NCBI GenBank assembly: GCA_963749075.1
Contig: CAVVLJ010000017.1
Span: 704,001-768,000 of the forward strand
Reading direction: 5' to 3'
Length of the DNA: 64,000 nt
Origin: an uncultured Pseudomonadota bacterium
Lineage (GTDB): Bacteria; Pseudomonadota; Alphaproteobacteria; JACZXZ01
The first letter of the stretch is position 1; every line of letters begins with the position of its first letter. The notes under the pieces are model-generated. The model saw only the letters and a program-made list of their open reading frames with translations. It was not told the origin of the DNA and did no database searches. This document shows positions 31,054 to 59,941 of this stretch, one piece after another. The translations under genes and the position numbers were made by a program.

Positions 31054-31079
31054 CCCTCTTCTCCTGAAGGAGGAGAGGG
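31054..31079. repeat. Palindromic intergenic repeat, family A copy 1
   Basis: CCCTCTTCTCCTGAAGGAGGAGAGGG; related copies at 41847 and 57138. Confidence 0.8.
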
Positions 31080-41846: not shown

Positions 41847-41879
41847 CCCTCTCCGCCTTCAGGAGGAGAGGGAGGGTAG
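41847..41879. repeat. Palindromic intergenic repeat, family A copy 2
   Basis: CCCTCTCCGCCTTCAGGAGGAGAGGGAGGGTAG. Confidence 0.8.
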
Positions 41880-52423: not shown

Positions 52424-53513
52424 ATGCTCTACCGCTGTCTCCCTGCCGCGCAGCGCCCCGCTGTCTTGCGCGCTCCCGCAGCCGGCAAACGCGGCCGCAG
52501 CCGCCCATTCACCGTCGATGTCCACTGCCACGTGCTGACGCCCGCGGCCGAGGCCATGGTAGCACCTCACTGGCGGCCCGAGAGCGACCCTCTCGACCAC
52601 TTCTCGAATGCTGCCACGCGCGAGGTCAACCGCCGACAGGGCATCGCCATCCGCGAGCGCATCACCTCGACGGCAGCCCGGCTCGCCGCGATGGACAAGG
52701 CCGGCATCGACGTGCAGGCGATCTCGCCCGCGCCGTCGCAATACTATTATTGGTGCGAGCCCGAGCTCGGCCGTGCTGCGGCGCGCGCCATCAACGACAA
52801 CATCGCGGCGATCACGGCCGAGCACCCGGAGCGCTTCGTCGGCCTCGCCAGCGTGCCGCTGCAGGAGCCGCGGCTCGCCGTGGCCGAGCTCGAGCGCGCG
52901 ACGAAGAAGCTCGGTTTGCGTGGCGTCGAGATCTGCACCAACGTGGCCGGCACCGAGCTCTCGGAAGCCACGCTTCCGCAAGTTCTTCGCCAAGGCCGAG
53001 GAGCTCGGCATCGTCGTCTTCATGCATCCGAGCGGCTTCACCGAGGGCCGCCGCCTGGCCGACCATTACTTCTCGAACGTCATCGGCAATCCGCTCGACA
53101 CCACGGTGGCCTTGAGCCATCTCATCTTCGGCGGCGTGCTCGAGGCCTATCCCCGCCTCAAGATCGTGGCGGCCCACGGCGGCGGCTTCCTCCCCGCCTA
53201 TTCCGGCCGCATGGATCACGCGCACGCGGCGCGCGCGGACTGCCGCCGGCTCATCAAGAGGAAACCGACGAGCTACCTCAGGAAAGTCTACTTCGACAGC
53301 ATGGTGTTCACCCGCCACCAGCTCGAGTATCTCGCAAGCCTCTACGGCAGCGGCCACATCCTCCTCGGCACCGACTATCCCTACGACATGGGGATGGCGG
53401 ACCCGGTCGGCTTCATCGCGGGCGCGCGGCTCGGCGCCAAGGAGAAGGCCGCGATCATGGGCGGCAACGCGGCGCGGCTTCTCAAGATCAGGCGGCCTCG
53501 TTCCGCGCATTGA
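52424..53513 (+). CDS. Amidohydrolase_2 family decarboxylase/hydratase (ACMSD-like) with a +1 frameshift at about 52965
   Basis: DVHCH, FMHP, AHGGG, YFDS, GTDYPYD; removing one base of AA 52965-52966 joins ELS-EPRFRKFF. Confidence 0.88.
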
Positions 53514-53614
53514 GGAAGCAGGCTGGCCCCTCGGTTGCGGCGGCCCAAGCCGCAGGATAGGCTGGCGCGCAACGAGCGAGATTTAGCCGGCACAAGAGGT
53601 GGGAGGGCGCTGCC

Positions 53615-54253
53615 GTGAGGCTCTATAGCTATTACCGCTCGCAAGCGACCTTCCGCGTGCGCATCGCCCTCAACCTCAAGGGCATCCCGCGCGAGGACAG
53701 TTTCATCCACCTCGAGCGCGGCGAGCAATCCGCCGCCTCTTACAAGGCGATCAATCCCCAGATGGCCGTGCCCACCTTGCTCGACGGCAAGGCGAAGCTC
53801 ACCCAGTCGCTCGCCATCCTGGAATATCTCGAGGAGAGATACCCTGAGCCGCCGCTCCTGCCGGCGGATCCCCTGGCCCGCGCCTGGGTGCGCGCGCTCG
53901 CCCTCATCAACGTGGCCGATTCGCACCCGCTCATCGTGCCGCGCATCCGCAAATACTTCACCGAGGTCCTGAAGCTCGGCGAGGCTGAGCGGCTCGCCTG
54001 GATCCAGCATTGGCTCGGCCTGGGCCTGGACGCCATGGAGACGCTCCTCGCCGAGCATCCCGAGAGCGGCCGCTTCTGCCACGGCGAGACGCCGACCATG
54101 GCCGACATCTGCCTGGTGACCCAGGTGACCCCGGCCAAGATGTTCAAATGCCCGTTGGACGCCTATCCCAGGGTGACGCGAGTTTACGACAGCTGCATGG
54201 CCATCCAGGCCTTTGCCGACGCGCATCCGCTGAAGCAGCCCGACGCGGAGTGA
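53615..54253 (+). CDS. maiA: Maleylacetoacetate/maleylpyruvate isomerase (GST zeta)
   Basis: LYSYYRSQATFRVRIALNLK, NPQ..VP, QSLAILEYL, AHP..QPD. Confidence 0.9.
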   Translation: MRLYSYYRSQATFRVRIALNLKGIPREDSFIHLERGEQSAASYKAINPQMAVPTLLDGKAKLTQSLAILEYLEERYPEPPLLPADPLARAWVRALALINVADSHPLIVPRIRKYFTEVLKLGEAERLAWIQHWLGLGLDAMETLLAEHPESGRFCHGETPTMADICLVTQVTPAKMFKCPLDAYPRVTRVYDSCMAIQAFADAHPLKQPDAE

Positions 54254-54270
54254 CGGCGCCGGCCGGGCAC

Positions 54271-54354
54271 ATGACTTCCGCTCAGATGCGCCGCATGATT
54301 ATCTTGGTAAGAGAATATTCGCGCGCACACATGGATCGGAGGCGACGGCGATGA
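54271..54354 (+). pseudogene. Possible C-terminal relic of a RelE/HigB2-type toxin
   Basis: MTSAQMRRMIILVREYSRAH... resembles the C-terminal helix of such toxins; AT-richer; ATGA overlap with the following HTH gene. Confidence 0.35.
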
Positions 54355-54659
54355 GCAAGGCGAAAGGCAGGATCGGCACACTGATCGTGGAGGCGCTCGC
54401 GGAGGCAGTGGCCGATGCACAGGGCAAGCGCACCGGAATGCGCAAGCGGATCGTCACGGTGCCCGTGGATGTCGACGTGAAGGCGATCCGCAGGCGGCTC
54501 GGCATGTCCCAGTCGCAATTCGCGGACCGTTTTGGATTTCCGCTCGGCACGGTGCAGAATTGGGAGCGCGGCCACCGGCGTCCAGAAGGTGCTGCCCGCG
54601 CACTTCTCAAGGTGATTGAGAAGCGTCCCGACGCGGTCATCGAGGCACTCTCAGCATGA
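54351..54659 (+). CDS. XRE-family HTH protein (HigA2/YiaG-like antitoxin type)
   Basis: DVKAIRRRLGMSQSQFA..FG...TVQNWERG.RRPEGAARALL. Confidence 0.88.
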   Translation: MSKAKGRIGTLIVEALAEAVADAQGKRTGMRKRIVTVPVDVDVKAIRRRLGMSQSQFADRFGFPLGTVQNWERGHRRPEGAARALLKVIEKRPDAVIEALSA

Positions 54660-55849
54660 GGCACGAAGGTCCGGTCGGCGCTTCCTCCAAGCCGCGCGAC
54701 AGAGGACTCTCAGCGTCAGAGTCGCCCGCCGCGGAAGCGGACGAGAGGGCCGCTCGCCTCACCGCGGTCTACCGCGTGCGCGCCGAGGCGGGTGCCATCG
54801 AGGCACGCGCCGAAGCGATCGCGGTCGAGCAGAGCGTCGAGATGCCGGTCTCCGCGATCGACGACCCGAAGGTGCTCGCCGACATCGTCGGGCGGGTCGA
54901 GGGCATCGCCGATCTCGGCGGCGGGCTCTTCGAGGTGCGCATCGGCCTTGCGGCTGAGACGGTGGGCTCGGAGCCGGGGCAGCTCATGAACATGCTCTTC
55001 GGCAACAGCTCGATCCACGAGGACGTGGAGCTTCACGACGCGCTGATCCCGCCGGAGCTGGCCGCCGCCTTTGCCGGGCCCAATCGCGGCCTCGCCGGCT
55101 TGCGCGCCATGATCGGCGGCGCAAGGCGTGCTTTCACCTGCTCGGCGCTCAAGCCCCAGGGCTTGCCGGCGCGCGAGCTCGCGGCACTCGCCGGCCGCCT
55201 GGCACTGGGCGGCCTCGACTTCATCAAGGACGATCACGGCCTCGCCGACCAGCGCTACAGCCCCTTCGCCGAGCGGCTTGCGGCCTGCGCCGCCGCGGTC
55301 GAGAAGGCGAGCGAGGCGACCGGCCGCACCGCGCGCTACGTGCCGAGCCTCTCCGGCAACCTCGATTCCTTGCGCAGGCAGATGGCGCTCGCGCGCGCGG
55401 CCGGCATCGAGATGGTGCTCATCGCCCCCATGGTCGTCGGCCTGCCGCAGCTCGCCCAGCTTGCGCGCGAGAATCCGGAGATCGCCTTCATGGCGCATCC
55501 GGCGCTCGCCGGAGCCGCGCGCATCGCACCGCCGCTCCTCTTGGGCAAGCTCTTCCGCCTCTTGGGCGCCGACGCCACGATCTTCCCCAACCACGGCGGC
55601 CGCTTCGGCTATTCGCGCGAGACCTGCCTGGCGCTCGCAGAGGCCGCGCGCGCGCCTCAGCCGGCGATCCGGCCCGCGGTCCCCGTGCCGGCCGGCGGCA
55701 TGACGCCCGCGCGCGTGCCCGAGATGCTCGAGTTCTACGGCCCGGACTGCATGCTTCTCATCGGCGGCGGCCTGCTCGCCGCGCGCGGGCGGGTGACCGA
55801 GGAGACGGCGGCCTTCACCCGCCAGGTCGAGCAATACGCCTATCGCTGA
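54656..55849 (+). CDS. RuBisCO-like protein (form IV), candidate 5-methylthioribulose-1-phosphate isomerase
   Basis: EQSVE, LFGN, ALKPQG, FIKDDHG (KDDH rather than KDDE), MAHPA, GGRF, PAGG, IGGG; no small subunit or cbb genes nearby. Confidence 0.9.
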   Translation: MRHEGPVGASSKPRDRGLSASESPAAEADERAARLTAVYRVRAEAGAIEARAEAIAVEQSVEMPVSAIDDPKVLADIVGRVEGIADLGGGLFEVRIGLAAETVGSEPGQLMNMLFGNSSIHEDVELHDALIPPELAAAFAGPNRGLAGLRAMIGGARRAFTCSALKPQGLPARELAALAGRLALGGLDFIKDDHGLADQRYSPFAERLAACAAAVEKASEATGRTARYVPSLSGNLDSLRRQMALARAAGIEMVLIAPMVVGLPQLAQLARENPEIAFMAHPALAGAARIAPPLLLGKLFRLLGADATIFPNHGGRFGYSRETCLALAEAARAPQPAIRPAVPVPAGGMTPARVPEMLEFYGPDCMLLIGGGLLAARGRVTEETAAFTRQVEQYAYR

Positions 55850-55877
55850 GGCGGCCGGAGAGAAAGGAGAGCGCGGC

Positions 55878-57194
55878 GTGGCGATCGTTCTCGAGGGTGC
55901 CGCCGTCATCGCCATGGACGAGGGGAACCGCGTGCTCCCCGCGGCCGACCTGCGCATCGAGGGCGAGCGCATCGCGGCCCTCGGCGAGGCGGGCACGCTC
56001 CGGCGCGAGGGCGACCAGGTGCTCGATTGCCGCGACCGGCTGGTGATCCCGGGATTCGTCGATACCCACACGCACGTGGCGGCCGGCCTCTTCCGCGGCC
56101 TCGTCGAGGACGTGGCGCGGGAGCATTGGCGCGACGGCTACGCCATCCCCGGAGAGGAGCGCTTCCGCCCCGAGGACTATCTCCTCGCCGCGTGCGCAGC
56201 CTGCTGCGAGCTTTTGCAGAACGGCGTCACCTGCATCGCCGACCGCTGGGCCGGCATGCTGGCGATCTCGGAGGAGATCGCGCGCACCGGCATCCGCGCC
56301 GTCGTCGGCCACACGCTCAGCGACGCCAAGGCCAAGGCAGAGTGGCCGGCCGCGGAGGCGCTCCTCGAGCGCTGGGGTACCGCGCCCGCGAGCCGCATCA
56401 GCGCCGGCATCGCCCCCCATGCACCCGACACCTGCTCGGACGCGCTGCTGCGCGCTTGCGCGGATGCGGCCGAGAAGCACGGCTGCCGCCTCTTCATCCA
56501 CGCGGCGCAGAGCGAGTGGGAGATCGAGCGCCTCCGCGCGCGAGGCTACCGCGGCCTCCTCGATTGCTTCACGCAGAACGGGCTCACGGGCCCCCACGTG
56601 GTGGCGGCGCACTGCATCTATCTCGAGGAGCGCGAGATCGCGGCGTGGCCCGGGAGCGGCATCTCGATCGCCCATTGCCCGGCGAGCAATCTCAAGATCG
56701 AGGCGCGCACCATGCCGCTTCACCGCTTCGTCGGGCGCGTCGCCGTCGGGCTCGGCACCGACTGGGCACCAAGCGACAACGGCATGGACATGCTGGCCGA
56801 GACGCGGCTCGCGGCCCTCGTCGGCAAGCTCCTCGCCGGCGACCCGACCGCCCTCCCCGTCGCCGCCATGCTGCGCATGGCGACCATCGAGGGCGCCCGC
56901 GTGCTCGGCCTCGACGCCGCCGTCGGCAGCATCGAGCCGGGCAAGCAGGCCGACCTCGCGGTCCTCGATCTCGCAACGCTCGAGGCCAACCCGCGCCACG
57001 ATCTCGCGGCCAACCTCCTCTATTCCATGAGCGCACGCTCGGTGCGCGACGTGATGGTGGCGGGCGAGTTCCTCGTGCGCGACGGCAGGCTCACCCGCTT
57101 CGATGCGGGCGAGCTGCAACGGGAGATGCGATCTCGTCCCTCTCCTCCTTTAGGAGGAGAGGGAGGGGCCCGTCGCGAAGCGACGGGAGGGTGA
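55878..57194 (+). CDS. Amidohydrolase, MTA/SAH deaminase-TrzN (COG0402) superfamily
   Basis: PGFVDTHTH, PHAPDTC, IHAAQS, AAHC, HCPASNLK, GTD, GSIEPGKQAD. Confidence 0.88.
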   Translation: MAIVLEGAAVIAMDEGNRVLPAADLRIEGERIAALGEAGTLRREGDQVLDCRDRLVIPGFVDTHTHVAAGLFRGLVEDVAREHWRDGYAIPGEERFRPEDYLLAACAACCELLQNGVTCIADRWAGMLAISEEIARTGIRAVVGHTLSDAKAKAEWPAAEALLERWGTAPASRISAGIAPHAPDTCSDALLRACADAAEKHGCRLFIHAAQSEWEIERLRARGYRGLLDCFTQNGLTGPHVVAAHCIYLEEREIAAWPGSGISIAHCPASNLKIEARTMPLHRFVGRVAVGLGTDWAPSDNGMDMLAETRLAALVGKLLAGDPTALPVAAMLRMATIEGARVLGLDAAVGSIEPGKQADLAVLDLATLEANPRHDLAANLLYSMSARSVRDVMVAGEFLVRDGRLTRFDAGELQREMRSRPSPPLGGEGGARREATGG

Positions 57195-57280
57195 GGAGGG
57201 CGAGCGCATCAGCCTTTCGACGCGATTGGACAAATCACCTCCTCACCCTCCTCCTAAAGGAGGAGAGGGTAGGGTGAGGG
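57138..57280. repeat. Composite palindromic repeat (family A, full element) overlapping the amidohydrolase 3' end
   Basis: CCCTCTCCTCCT-TT-AGGAGGAGAGGG, inner hairpin CCCGTCGC-GAA-GCGACGGG, second arm CCTCACCCTCCTCCTAAAGGAGGAGAGGGTAGGGTGAGG. Confidence 0.85.
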
Positions 57281-57371
57281 AGCGCGGCGCCGCAATGGCC
57301 TTTCTGGACTTGTCGGCGGGCGATCCTATATCTTGCTCGGCTCAACCTCTCGGAGCGAAGGTCCAGCACCC

Positions 57372-57842
57372 ATGGACAGCGACGCACTGCCCCGCCTGCT
57401 TGGCTTCCGCGACGGCTTCCGCTGGGACGGCATCGACCTCCTCCCCTACAAGGAGGAGGGCAGCGCCCCCTTCAAGTCGATCTCGCGCCAGACCCTCTTC
57501 TCGGACGCGCACTTGCGCTGCGAGCTGCGCTATTTCGAGATGGCGGCGGGCGGCTATTCGACCCTCGAGCGCCACGAGCACATGCACGCGGTGATGATCC
57601 TCCGCGGCCGCGGCCACTGCTTGCTCGGCCAGGAAGTGTGCTCTGTCAAGCAATACGACCTCGTGGCCATCCCGCCCTGGACCTGGCACCAGTTCCGCGC
57701 CACGGAAGGCGAGCCGCTCGGCTTTCTCTGCATGGTCAATGCCGAGCGCGACAAGCCGCAGCTCCCCTCCGAGGCCGAGCTCGAGGCGCTGCGCAGTGTT
57801 CCCGCCATCGCCGCTTTCCTCGACGGCGCCCTCGGCGTCTGA
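57372..57842 (+). CDS. Cupin, candidate methylthio-xylulose-5-phosphate methylsulfurylase
   Basis: RW.G....YK, RQTLF, ELRYFE..GGYSTLERHEH.H, WHQF, LGFLC.V..ERDKP; clustered with the RLP. Confidence 0.8.
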   Translation: MDSDALPRLLGFRDGFRWDGIDLLPYKEEGSAPFKSISRQTLFSDAHLRCELRYFEMAAGGYSTLERHEHMHAVMILRGRGHCLLGQEVCSVKQYDLVAIPPWTWHQFRATEGEPLGFLCMVNAERDKPQLPSEAELEALRSVPAIAAFLDGALGV

Positions 57843-57861
57843 ACCGGTCGCCGCGCGTGCG

Positions 57862-57876
57862 ATCGCTTTTTCCGAT
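57862..57876. promoter_or_regulatory. Candidate OxyR/LysR box upstream of ahpCD
   Basis: ATC-N9-GAT palindrome (contains T-N11-A) in an AT-rich spacer. Confidence 0.5.
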
Positions 57877-57969
57877 TAATTGCGACGGAATTACTCGTTG
57901 GCTCGATCGATGGCTCGACGCCATCTTCCTCCTTGCGACACCCTTTCACGCGAAGCGAGGAGAGCAGAC

Positions 57970-58509
57970 ATGTTGACCATCGGCGACAAGTTCCCGGCCT
58001 TCAAGCTCAAGGCCGTCGTCTCGAGCGACCCCAGGACCGCCTTCACCGAGCTCTCCGAGGCCTCCGACCGCGGCAAGTGGAAGGTCGTGTTCTTCTGGCC
58101 CAAGGACTTCACCTTCGTCTGCCCGACCGAGATCGCGGCCTTCGGCCGCTTGAACGGCGAGTTCAACGATCGTGATGCGGTGGTCTACGGCGTCAGCATC
58201 GACTCTGAGTTCGTGCATCTCGCCTGGCGCCAGAACCATGCCGACCTCAAGGCGCTGCCCTTTCCCATGCTGGCCGACCTCAAGCGCGAGCTCTCCCAGG
58301 CGCTCGGCATCCTCGACAAGGCGGAAGGCGTGGCGTTGCGCGCCACCTTCATCGTCGACCCCGAGGGCGTCATCCGCTTCGTCTCGGTCAACGACCTGAG
58401 CGTGGGGCGCAACCCGCAGGAGGTCCTGCGCGTGCTCGACGCGCTGCAGACCGACGAGCTCTGCCCGTGCAACTGGCAGAAGGGCGACGAGGTGCTCAAG
58501 GCCGCCTGA
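57970..58509 (+). CDS. ahpC: Peroxiredoxin AhpC
   Basis: FWPKDFTFVCPTE, GRN, DELCPCNW. Confidence 0.96.
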   Translation: MLTIGDKFPAFKLKAVVSSDPRTAFTELSEASDRGKWKVVFFWPKDFTFVCPTEIAAFGRLNGEFNDRDAVVYGVSIDSEFVHLAWRQNHADLKALPFPMLADLKRELSQALGILDKAEGVALRATFIVDPEGVIRFVSVNDLSVGRNPQEVLRVLDALQTDELCPCNWQKGDEVLKAA

Positions 58510-58576
58510 GCGGCGGTAGAGAGGGGCGGCCGCTCGGCCGCCCCGTCCCAACCGCGCCCCAAAAGGAGATCCCGCC

Positions 58577-59125
58577 ATGTCGATCGAAGCCATCAAGAGC
58601 CGCCTGCCCGAGTATGCCCGCGACCTCAAGCTCAACCTCTCGAGCCTGCTCTCCGAGCCCGTGCTCAGCGAGCAGCAGCGCTTCGGCACCTTCATTGCCT
58701 CGGCCCTCGCCGCGCGCAACCCCGAGCTCGCGGCCGCCCTCGAGGCCGAGCTCGGCCCGCGTCTCGCACCCGAGGCGTTCCAGGCGGCCAAGGCCGCGGC
58801 CGCCATCATGGCGATGAACAACATCTACTATCGCTTCATCCATCTCGCCGCGGCGGACGACTACCGCGCCATGCCCGCCAGGCTGCGCATGAACGCACTC
58901 GCCAGGCCGGGCGTGGAGAAAGCGGATTTCGAGCTGTGGTCGCTCGCGGTCTCGGCGATCAACGGCTGCGGCATGTGCATCGACGCGCACGAGCGCGAGT
59001 TGAGGAAAGCCGGCGTGCCGGCGGAGGCGATCCAGGCGGCGGTGCGCATCGCGGCCGTGGTGCATGCCGTGGCGGCGACGCTCGACGGCGAGCCGGCAGA
59101 CGCGGCGTCCCGCGCGGCCGCGTGA
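58577..59125 (+). CDS. ahpD: Alkyl hydroperoxide reductase AhpD
   Basis: [34 protein letters not shown]. Confidence 0.96.
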
Positions 59126-59134
59126 GGGCGGGCC

Positions 59135-59941
59135 CTACTCGGCGGCCGGACGGCGCCTCCGCGCGTGCTCGAGGAGGCAGTCGTCCGGCAGCGTCTCGAT
59201 CGGCGTGAAGTCGCGGTTGGCGATCCAGGCCGGCCGCTTGAAGCGGCGGATCGCGTTGTCGCAGCGGTTGAGCGAGAGATAGAGGATCCAGCGCGGCCAC
59301 GGCGAGAGATTCGAGCCCGAGGCGTGCACCAGGTTGCCGTGGAAGAGGAGGAGCGAGCCCGGCGGTCCCTTGGGCGCCACGATGCCGCCCTCCTCGACGA
59401 GCCGCGCGATCGTCGCATTGTCCGTCGTCCAGAGGGGATAGCTCGTGGTGGTCACGTCGTGCGCCGCCGCGAGCCGGCCCTTGCGGTGGCTCTTCGGGAT
59501 GAACATGAGCGGCCCGTTGAACTCGTTCGCCTCGGCGAGGAAGAGGGCGATGTTCATGGCCTGCGGCGCCGGCATGTCGTCGTCGTTGTGCCAGGTCGCG
59601 TAATCCTGGTGCCACTGCCAGACCGCGCCGTCGAAGGCCGCCTTGGCGTTGATCTTGAACTGGTGCATGTAGAGCCGGTCCGAGCCGAGGAGCTGGGCGA
59701 CCGGCTGGACTAAGCGCGGATGGCGCGCCACGAGCGCAAAGACCGGGTTCCAGGTCTGTACATGGAAGGCCGTGCGCGGCGCCTCCGAGCCCTTCTCGCG
59801 CACCACCTCCTCGCGCCTCTCCGCGAAGATGGCCGGGAGCTCGGCGTTGAGCAGCGCCATCTCCACGGCCGAGAAGACTTGGGGGAGGAAGAGATAGCCC
59901 TCCTCCGCGAACTCCGCGAGCTGGGCCTCGTCGAGCTTCAT
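59135..59941 (-). CDS. PhyH-family Fe(II)/2OG dioxygenase (ectoine/proline hydroxylase-like)
   Basis: HQFKINAK, WHQDYATW, NGPL..IPKSH, LVHASGSN...R. Confidence 0.88.
   Translation of the reverse strand: MKLDEAQLAEFAEEGYLFLPQVFSAVEMALLNAELPAIFAERREEVVREKGSEAPRTAFHVQTWNPVFALVARHPRLVQPVAQLLGSDRLYMHQFKINAKAAFDGAVWQWHQDYATWHNDDDMPAPQAMNIALFLAEANEFNGPLMFIPKSHRKGRLAAAHDVTTTSYPLWTTDNATIARLVEEGGIVAPKGPPGSLLLFHGNLVHASGSNLSPWPRWILYLSLNRCDNAIRRFKRPAWIANRDFTPIETLPDDCLLEHARRRRPAAE

Follow-up and report, generated by a model that had tools for sequence, protein, structure and literature searches.

The window analysed here, a stretch of 64,000 nucleotides (C17:704001-768000, from contig CAVVLJ010000017.1 of GenBank assembly GCA_963749075.1) belonging to the genome of an uncultured alphaproteobacterium, contains three consecutive genes on one strand that encode a RuBisCO-like protein (RLP), an amidohydrolase of the cog0402 type, and a cupin. 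The list of open reading frames (ORFs) and the Pfam searches agree on the coordinates at which a sequence-only reading of this DNA had placed these genes (Table 1), and their Pfam E-values rule out a chance ORF in all three cases. That reading had also pointed to the short gap of 28 nt between the RLP and amidohydrolase genes, to a KDDH motif in the RLP and to an HEHxH motif in the cupin, all of which we could confirm: KDDH occupies residues 191-194 and is invariant in 16/16 aligned homologues, and the cupin motif reads HEHMH at residues 81-85 of the 169-aa ORF. The cupin call in the protein collection begins at M14 (57372), correcting the ORF start at 57333, so that the gap between the amidohydrolase and cupin genes is 177 nt. 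Alignments of RLP homologues begin only at about residue 23-33, and the first ~30 of the 397 residues are not conserved.

Table 1. Genes and other features in and around the RLP-amidohydrolase-cupin locus (positions in the window).
Feature	Position	Strand	Remarks
HTH (helix-turn-helix) gene	54351..54659	+	102 aa; XRE-type, NadS/MqsA-antitoxin-like; Pfam HTH_3 E 2.4e-8
RLP (DeepYkr / R. rubrum type)	54656..55849	+	397 aa, ATG start; Pfam RuBisCO_large E 1e-18, 68 bits
Spacer, 28 nt	55850..55877	+	AGGAG Shine-Dalgarno-like site before the amidohydrolase GTG
Amidohydrolase, cog0402-type, H-x-A-Q subfamily	55878..57194	+	438 aa, GTG start; Pfam Amidohydro_1 E 1.3e-52
REP-like (repetitive extragenic palindrome-like) palindrome, copy 1, CCCTCTCCTCC-TTTA-GGAGGAGAGGG	57138..57163	.	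overlaps the 3' end of the amidohydrolase ORF
REP-like palindrome, copy 2	57244..57269	.	106 nt past copy 1, inside the 177-nt gap before the cupin
Cupin	57372..57842	+	156 aa from M14; ORF open from TTG 57333 (169 aa); Pfam Cupin_2 E 6.8e-12
Terminator-like hairpin and T-run	57845..57875	+	immediately 3' of the cupin stop
Peroxiredoxin (AhpC/TSA)	57880..58509	+	Pfam; context gene
CMD/AhpD-like gene	58577..59125	+	Pfam; context gene

The best solved relative of the cupin is PDB 3jzv (E 1.7e-62, residues 23-168), deposited as 'uncharacterized protein Rru_A2000', and the histidine cluster that reads HEHMH in the window protein reads HQHAH in 3jzv. Passages of PMC4958253 and PMC4334135 describe Rru_A2000 as the 1-methylthioxylulose-5-phosphate sulfurylase of Rhodospirillum rubrum, and its substrate as the product of Rru_A1998, the Deep-Ykr RLP of that organism. 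The RLP of the window matches the RLP entry PDB 3qfw over its full length (E 1.8e-121), and scores far below the cut-offs of the NCBIfam models for MtnW and for form II and form III RubisCO (163.9 against 409, for example); moreover, two of its homologue clusters, 72% and 66% identical to it, carry the JGI name 'S-methyl-5-thioribulose 1-phosphate isomerase'. We take the cupin to be the orthologue of Rru_A2000 and predict that it acts as a 1-methylthioxylulose-5-phosphate methylsulfurylase, and we infer that the RLP is the isomerase converting 5-methylthioribulose-1-phosphate to 1-methylthioxylulose-5-phosphate.

Conserved adjacency of the two genes points the same way. A scan with an RLP alignment, using one genome per species, matched at least 571 relatives, and in 79 of the best 80 loci the cupin match starts no more than 170 nt after the end of the RLP match; the exception is a locus (L001) whose sequence stops 12 nt after the RLP. 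In a sample of 400 other genomes drawn evenly from the class, the same 16 hold both RLP and cupin, and the two matches end no more than 64 nt apart in all 16, as against 1486 nt in the window. (The 80 loci and the class sample may share genomes and are not independent.) Together with the structural matches, these counts bear out the proposal of the sequence-only reading that RLP and cupin are a pair of the R. rubrum type, and the locus is very probably a canonical operon of the shunt by which 5'-methylthioadenosine (MTA) is turned to isoprenoid synthesis. We also observed that the open frames of the cupin at G276:C60:2298-3862 and G359:C14:6542-8115 extend to 527 aa and 433 aa and could reach into the adjacent RLP gene, a hint that some Alphaproteobacteria have RLP-cupin fusion proteins; the cupin is found in 5 of 44 genomes of the family to which the second of these belongs.

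The remaining enzymes of the shunt are encoded elsewhere in the genome. As the sequence-only reading had stated, neither mtnP nor mtnA lies in the window: the single genome match to MtnP is at C4:235983 (501.4 bits against a cut-off of 437 for the MTA-phosphorylase model NF006492) and that to MtnA is at C17:20560 (480.5 bits against 271, NF004326). Two O-acetylhomoserine sulfhydrylases are present (634 and 608 bits, cut-off 495). Dxr is split over two adjacent frames (C16:1019575-1020715) scoring 232.7 and 224.9 bits, each below the cut-off of 315.7, and this split is probably an assembly indel. By orthology to the R. rubrum enzymes, MtnP would release adenine and methylthioribose-1-phosphate from MTA, MtnA would convert the latter to methylthioribulose-1-phosphate, and the RLP of the window would isomerise this to 1-methylthioxylulose-5-phosphate. 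The cupin, with a thiol, would then strip off the methylthio group to give 1-deoxyxylulose-5-phosphate (DXP) for the methylerythritol-phosphate (MEP) pathway and methanethiol, which O-acetylhomoserine sulfhydrylase could return to methionine. None of these steps calls on the amidohydrolase, which does lie outside the described R. rubrum pathway, as had been noted earlier, and the shunt would not need it.

The amidohydrolase gene between RLP and cupin is a rare insertion. No homologue of it stands between the two genes in any of the 80 loci (79/79 evaluable loci lack the triplet) or in the 16 class-sample genomes, so that the survey of neighbourhoods which the sequence-only reading had called for shows no conservation of the amidohydrolase beside RLPs; in a single locus (L030) a homologue of 30% identity lies 2.3 kb upstream. 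A search for an orthologue in 40 relatives, including five of the same genus and five of the same family, found none, the best matches being 30-31% identical. An orthologue is present in only 2 of the 400 class-sample genomes (61-62% identical), and in one of these two (G114) the RLP-cupin pair is on a different contig from the amidohydrolase. Four loci from the same genus preserve the gene order of the window, with a xanthine-dehydrogenase-like gene, an Amidohydro_2 gene, maiA, RLP, cupin, a conserved minus-strand ORF, a second cupin (cupin-2) and a methyltransferase gene. These four lack the HTH gene, the amidohydrolase, and the pair of peroxiredoxin and AhpD-like genes; maiA directly precedes the RLP gene in them, and the RLP and cupin matches are 9 nt apart in two. 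The peroxiredoxin and AhpD-like pair (57880-59125) is a third insertion within the same 5-kb stretch.

The same arrangement is found once more, on an 8384-nt contig of a second metagenome-assembled genome (MAG) at NCBI, where RLP (P0004), amidohydrolase (P0125) and cupin (P0244) are 84%, 79% and 80% identical to the window proteins, carry the consecutive accessions MFI4986799, MFI4986800 and MFI4986801, and are the best database matches of all three. A third close amidohydrolase (P0124, 86%) is encoded on a contig of 1694 nt. The amidohydrolase retains every residue that is invariant in its family, and its divergence is comparable to that of its neighbours. Presence in two lineages, with neighbour-like divergence, implies that the insertion is old enough to be common to both and has been under constraint. 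The GC content at third codon positions (GC3) is 0.90 for the amidohydrolase, against values of 0.905 (RLP) and 0.911 (cupin) in its neighbours; a recent foreign origin, considered on grounds of composition, is rejected by this agreement.

These observations also bear on whether the gene was placed between RLP and cupin by a chimeric join during assembly. Such an artefact would be in keeping with apparent indel errors in this genome, in Dxr and in the Amidohydro_2 gene, each split over two frames, and with the fact that the RLP-amidohydrolase junction (55631-55993) is uncovered in two public runs. The independent second MAG, however, has the three genes under consecutive accessions, composition is uniform over all three, and an 848-nt Logan contig spans positions 56921-57743 and so links the amidohydrolase 3' end, both palindromes and part of the cupin, although the run from which it comes is maybe of the same sample and is then not independent. 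We consider a chimeric join scarcely credible. The Amidohydro_2 gene upstream of maiA (52424-53560; second frame 52608-53513) is split near 52,900-53,000, with Pfam positions 1-120 read in one frame, positions 116-288 in the second, and a GC3 signal that changes frame, and genomes of the same genus appear to have it in a single frame. Because Dxr is split in the same way, both are likely to be indel errors of the assembly.

Among solved structures, the nearest relatives of the amidohydrolase are deaminases of MTA and S-adenosylhomocysteine (SAH), with 4f0r (E 1.4e-65) followed by 4gbd and 4dyk, which we take to be Pseudomonas aeruginosa enzymes, then by 3lnp and 4dzh, and with 1p1m (TM0936) at 3e-43; a search with the family profile finds 4f0r at 8e-89. 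Look-alikes in the ESM Atlas fall only into clusters named generically 'amidohydrolase' or 'MTA/SAH deaminase', and the latter is also the name given automatically by JGI to many members of the family, which comprises at least 119 other clusters at 90% identity, each at least 57% identical to the window enzyme. The metal ligands H64, H66, H208 and D295 are kept together with H245, and the pattern of a mononuclear metal site, invariant in the family, is present. In three independent alignments (phmmer, hmmsearch and MAFFT), from which we read the states of the active site, Q211 aligns with the glutamate of the HxxE motif of deaminases, and all 120 of the top database matches, the window protein counted, have H-x-A-Q at this place. 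The tryptophan of the IWPxE motif, whose role is in ribose binding, is missing from the family, GTDGAASNN is replaced by GTDW, and R123, E275 and R277 appear as new invariant residues. According to passages of PMC12828455, Asp, His and Glu are the conserved catalytic machinery in the GuaD and CodA clusters, and the Glu protonates the substrate. Because this Glu is replaced by Gln in every member, the H-x-A-Q family is probably not one of canonical aminopurine deaminases.

A maximum-likelihood tree of 35 rows, rooted at the midpoint and with two stops in translated loci read as X, places the H-x-A-Q family (27 rows, 98/95) as sister to six deaminase-like sequences that bear HxxE. The window protein, P0124 and P0125 form one clade (100/99), and the RLP-linked clade is nested within the family, adjoining a locus that has ABC-transporter genes around it (97/94).

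The sequence-only reading had proposed that the amidohydrolase may deaminate MTA, SAH or 5'-deoxyadenosine, thereby feeding the shunt via methylthioinosine (MTI) or directing the RLP-cupin pair at another by-product of S-adenosylmethionine (SAM). The structural relatives and the automatic JGI names speak for this, as do the intact metal ligands, H245 and D295, the position of the gene 28 nt past the RLP inside an operon whose arrangement is kept in the second MAG, and the precedent of P. aeruginosa, in which, as passages of PMC6302742 have it, MTA is converted to MTI and then to methylthioribose-1-phosphate. On the other side stand the replacement of the HxxE glutamate, the loss of the IWPxE tryptophan, and scores far below the cut-offs of the equivalogs for bifunctional MTA/SAH deaminase (NF012037, 174.7 against 779), 5'-deoxyadenosine deaminase (NF005557, 282.6 against 522) and TRZ/ATZ hydrolase (NF006549, 292.3 against 540); every NCBIfam equivalog is below its cut-off for this protein. 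Moreover, the question raised earlier of which phosphorylase the genome encodes is answered in favour of the MTA type, which passes its model as given above, whereas this same protein, the sole MTAP-family phosphorylase of the genome, fails the MTI-phosphorylase model (cut-off 223), with 205.6 bits as an ORF and 206.6 when the whole genome was searched. An MTA-type phosphorylase argues against a route via MTI, and deamination of MTA would divert substrate from it. With the triplet absent from the loci and genomes surveyed, and with the family elsewhere showing no tie to genes for SAM by-products, the proposed role in feeding or redirecting the shunt is not supported, and we judge it improbable. 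Canonical adenine-N6 deamination of MTA, SAH or 5'-deoxyadenosine is probably not the activity of the amidohydrolase, and the name 'MTA/SAH deaminase' is probably a mis-annotation of the H-x-A-Q family in metagenome records.

The neighbours of other family members were surveyed in metagenomes. A scan with the family alignment retained 80 loci, 31 of them in-family (53-68% identical), and neighbours were annotated in those 22 in-family loci whose flanks were long enough and in two loci from genomes, 24 in all. No match to the RLP, the cupin or 14 other proteins of the window was present in any of the 80 metagenome loci, and neither an RLP nor a cupin of the shunt type lies in any of the 24. An NMT1/SsuA-like binding protein of an ABC transporter is found in 10/24 loci, a LysR regulator lies directly upstream in 7/24, and a regulator with XRE and cupin domains occurs in 3/24. 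In this last group, genes for an AMP-dependent CoA ligase and an enoyl-CoA hydratase follow downstream in one locus (L111), and another locus, that of the genome G114 mentioned above, has enoyl-CoA hydratases nearby; a dihydropyrimidinase adjoins the family member in one locus. We infer from this context uptake and breakdown of a nitrogen-containing, probably anionic compound, and see no link of the family loci to SAM by-products.

This context also weighs on a second possibility, that the amidohydrolase disposes of a purine by-product, either the adenine that MtnP sets free or an adenine that has been oxidised or modified, and so couples the salvage of sulfur and carbon to purine disposal. 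The family is sister to purine-nucleoside deaminases, MtnP frees one adenine per MTA, the purine salvage from MTA in R. rubrum is described as unresolved in passages of PMC4958253, no classical adenine deaminase scored over its cut-off in the genome search, and the gene has been retained inside the operon. An adenine phosphoribosyltransferase (218.6 bits against a cut-off of 185.85) already provides an outlet for adenine, however, and a site without the Glu argues against deamination of any aminopurine. In addition, R123, E275 and R277, taken with CoA-ligase and ABC-importer neighbours, make an imported anion seem a likelier substrate than adenine. We regard disposal of a purine as quite unlikely, about as much so as deamination of a SAM-derived nucleoside.

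Expression of the locus may be considered from the features that flank and separate the genes. The stop codon of the HTH gene overlaps the ATG of the RLP gene by 4 nt (ATGA), and spacing leads us to expect a single transcript that starts at the HTH gene or at the RLP and takes in the cupin. The product of the HTH gene scores 49.6 bits against NCBIfam NadS, below the cut-off of 60, and may be a regulator that the operon has recently gained or an orphan antitoxin-like protein; upstream of the gene a toxin partner would not fit, maiA being only 97 nt away. The hairpin at 57845 is the sole terminator-like site in 53500-59200 and is likely to mark the end of the transcription unit, although shuffled sequences average 2.3 such sites and it is weak evidence taken alone. 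A scan of the same interval for sigma-70-like promoters found none, such a scan being uninformative for this organism. The REP-like palindrome is perfect, with 26 nt, 11-bp arms and a 4-nt loop. Across the 5.49-Mb genome we counted 95 copies of its 24-nt core, as against 0 for a reversed-pattern control, and copies are often paired 105-150 nt apart, like bacterial interspersed mosaic elements (BIME) or a small miniature inverted-repeat transposable element (MITE). Further copies in the window lie at 31054-31079 and 41847-41872. The final ~19 codons of the amidohydrolase come from copy 1 of the locus, and the pair may modulate read-through into the cupin.

Taken together, we favour the account, to which we give a probability of roughly 0.6, that the locus is an ordinary MTA-isoprenoid shunt into which an amidohydrolase was later inserted in one clade. 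A gene of the H-x-A-Q family would have entered the RLP-cupin spacer, which is 9 nt in two same-genus genomes, in an ancestor common to at least one other MAG; the inserted gene has a ribosome-binding site of its own, and the pair of REP-like palindromes now lies at its 3' end. Because the gene is intact, compositionally native and conserved about as well as its neighbours, the amidohydrolase is probably functional and expressed together with the RLP. The likeliest reading is of a mononuclear-metal hydrolase whose substrate is some imported or endogenous nitrogen heterocycle, a co-expressed enzyme that is mechanistically unrelated to the shunt.

Several observations weigh against this account. 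An intact insertion inside a tight two-gene operon, kept in lineages ~20% apart in protein sequence, is also what functional recruitment would produce, and co-transcription is deduced from spacing. A change from Glu to Gln is no proof that deaminase activity is absent, and the invariant E215 or E275 could substitute; the nearest structures and the sister clade are MTA/SAH deaminases, so that a substrate resembling a purine nucleoside is possible. Moreover, the window protein alone among the 120 has Glu (PGEE) rather than Gln (PGQE) at residue 93, the position aligned with the Glu of WPxE, where Gln is found in 93 of the 95 sequences whose site could be located by regular expression and Glu only in the window protein. 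The locus tags Rru_A1998 and Rru_A2000 differ by two, which leaves one annotated gene between them, and a comparable insertion is possible in R. rubrum itself. As to this last point, Rru_A1999 does not occur in the available text of PMC4958253 and PMC4334135 or in their supplements, nor in two proteome tables of PMC4958253, and a literature search for the locus tag found nothing. At residue 93 the two closest relatives of the window protein keep Gln, and its Glu is a single-base difference.

Were recruitment the correct explanation, the Glu-less amidohydrolase would be part of a three-enzyme module in a small clade of soil Alphaproteobacteria, serving a hydrolytic step, so far undescribed, on an MTA-derived or purine by-product and co-regulated with RLP and cupin, possibly via the HTH gene. 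We think such a module unlikely; some functional tie of the amidohydrolase to the shunt, of whatever kind, is doubtful but has a slightly better chance. A literature search brought up nothing that ties the shunt to a deaminase or amidohydrolase in the text available: PMC4958253 was the only paper found to name the shunt together with a deaminase, the latter in connection with purine salvage, and the passages of PMC5893883 contain neither term. If the module were real, a large amidohydrolase family, so far uncharacterised, would gain its first function, and an action of the enzyme in MTA salvage would be a new step. If, on the other hand, the label 'MTA/SAH deaminase' is wrong, many metagenome annotations are wrong with it. 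The ordinary shunt with a later insertion, which we prefer, adds this genome as another member to a shunt already described, and two things are new: a rare operon with an inserted and retained third enzyme, so far in this genome and one other MAG, and the membership of that enzyme in a populous family, close to the MTA/SAH deaminases and named after them by automatic pipelines, that lacks their catalytic Glu.

Four known systems may be compared with the locus. The R. rubrum shunt (Rru_A1998 and Rru_A2000) shares with it the cupin homologue, an RLP with KDDH, the set of MtnP, MtnA, sulfhydrylase and Dxr, and the order of RLP then cupin. The window differs in the 1.5-kb insertion, amidohydrolase and REP-like pair, between its two genes, in the HTH gene that overlaps the start of the RLP, and in mtnP and mtnA that are unlinked to it, on a different contig or far away. 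With MTA/SAH deaminases (MtaD; 4f0r, 4dyk/4gbd and 1p1m) the window enzyme shares fold, length, the HxH, His and Asp ligands, the second-shell His and the HCPxSNLK motif. Its family departs from them in having H-x-A-Q for H-x-H-E, no Trp of IWPxE, GTDW for GTDGAASNN and the extra R123, E275 and R277, in its scores below the cut-offs, and in its usual neighbours, which are transporters, LysR regulators and CoA ligases.

The MTA deaminase and methylthioinosine phosphorylase of P. aeruginosa are, according to passages of PMC6302742, the only described case in which a deaminase of the cog0402 type acts before methylthioribose-1-phosphate is formed; in the present genome, by contrast, the phosphorylase is of the MTA type and the amidohydrolase lacks the catalytic Glu. 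The remaining comparison is with PRK06151, an uncharacterised 'chlorohydrolase family protein', of which the genome has two copies of its own (C16:1044537-1045784 and C4:147965-149209; L084 and L086). These paralogues are 33-34% identical to the window enzyme and in the midpoint-rooted tree belong neither to the deaminase clade nor to the family of the window enzyme. At the position of HxxE they have H-x-A-Q-S, and the change from Glu to Gln is therefore present in more than one cog0402 lineage.

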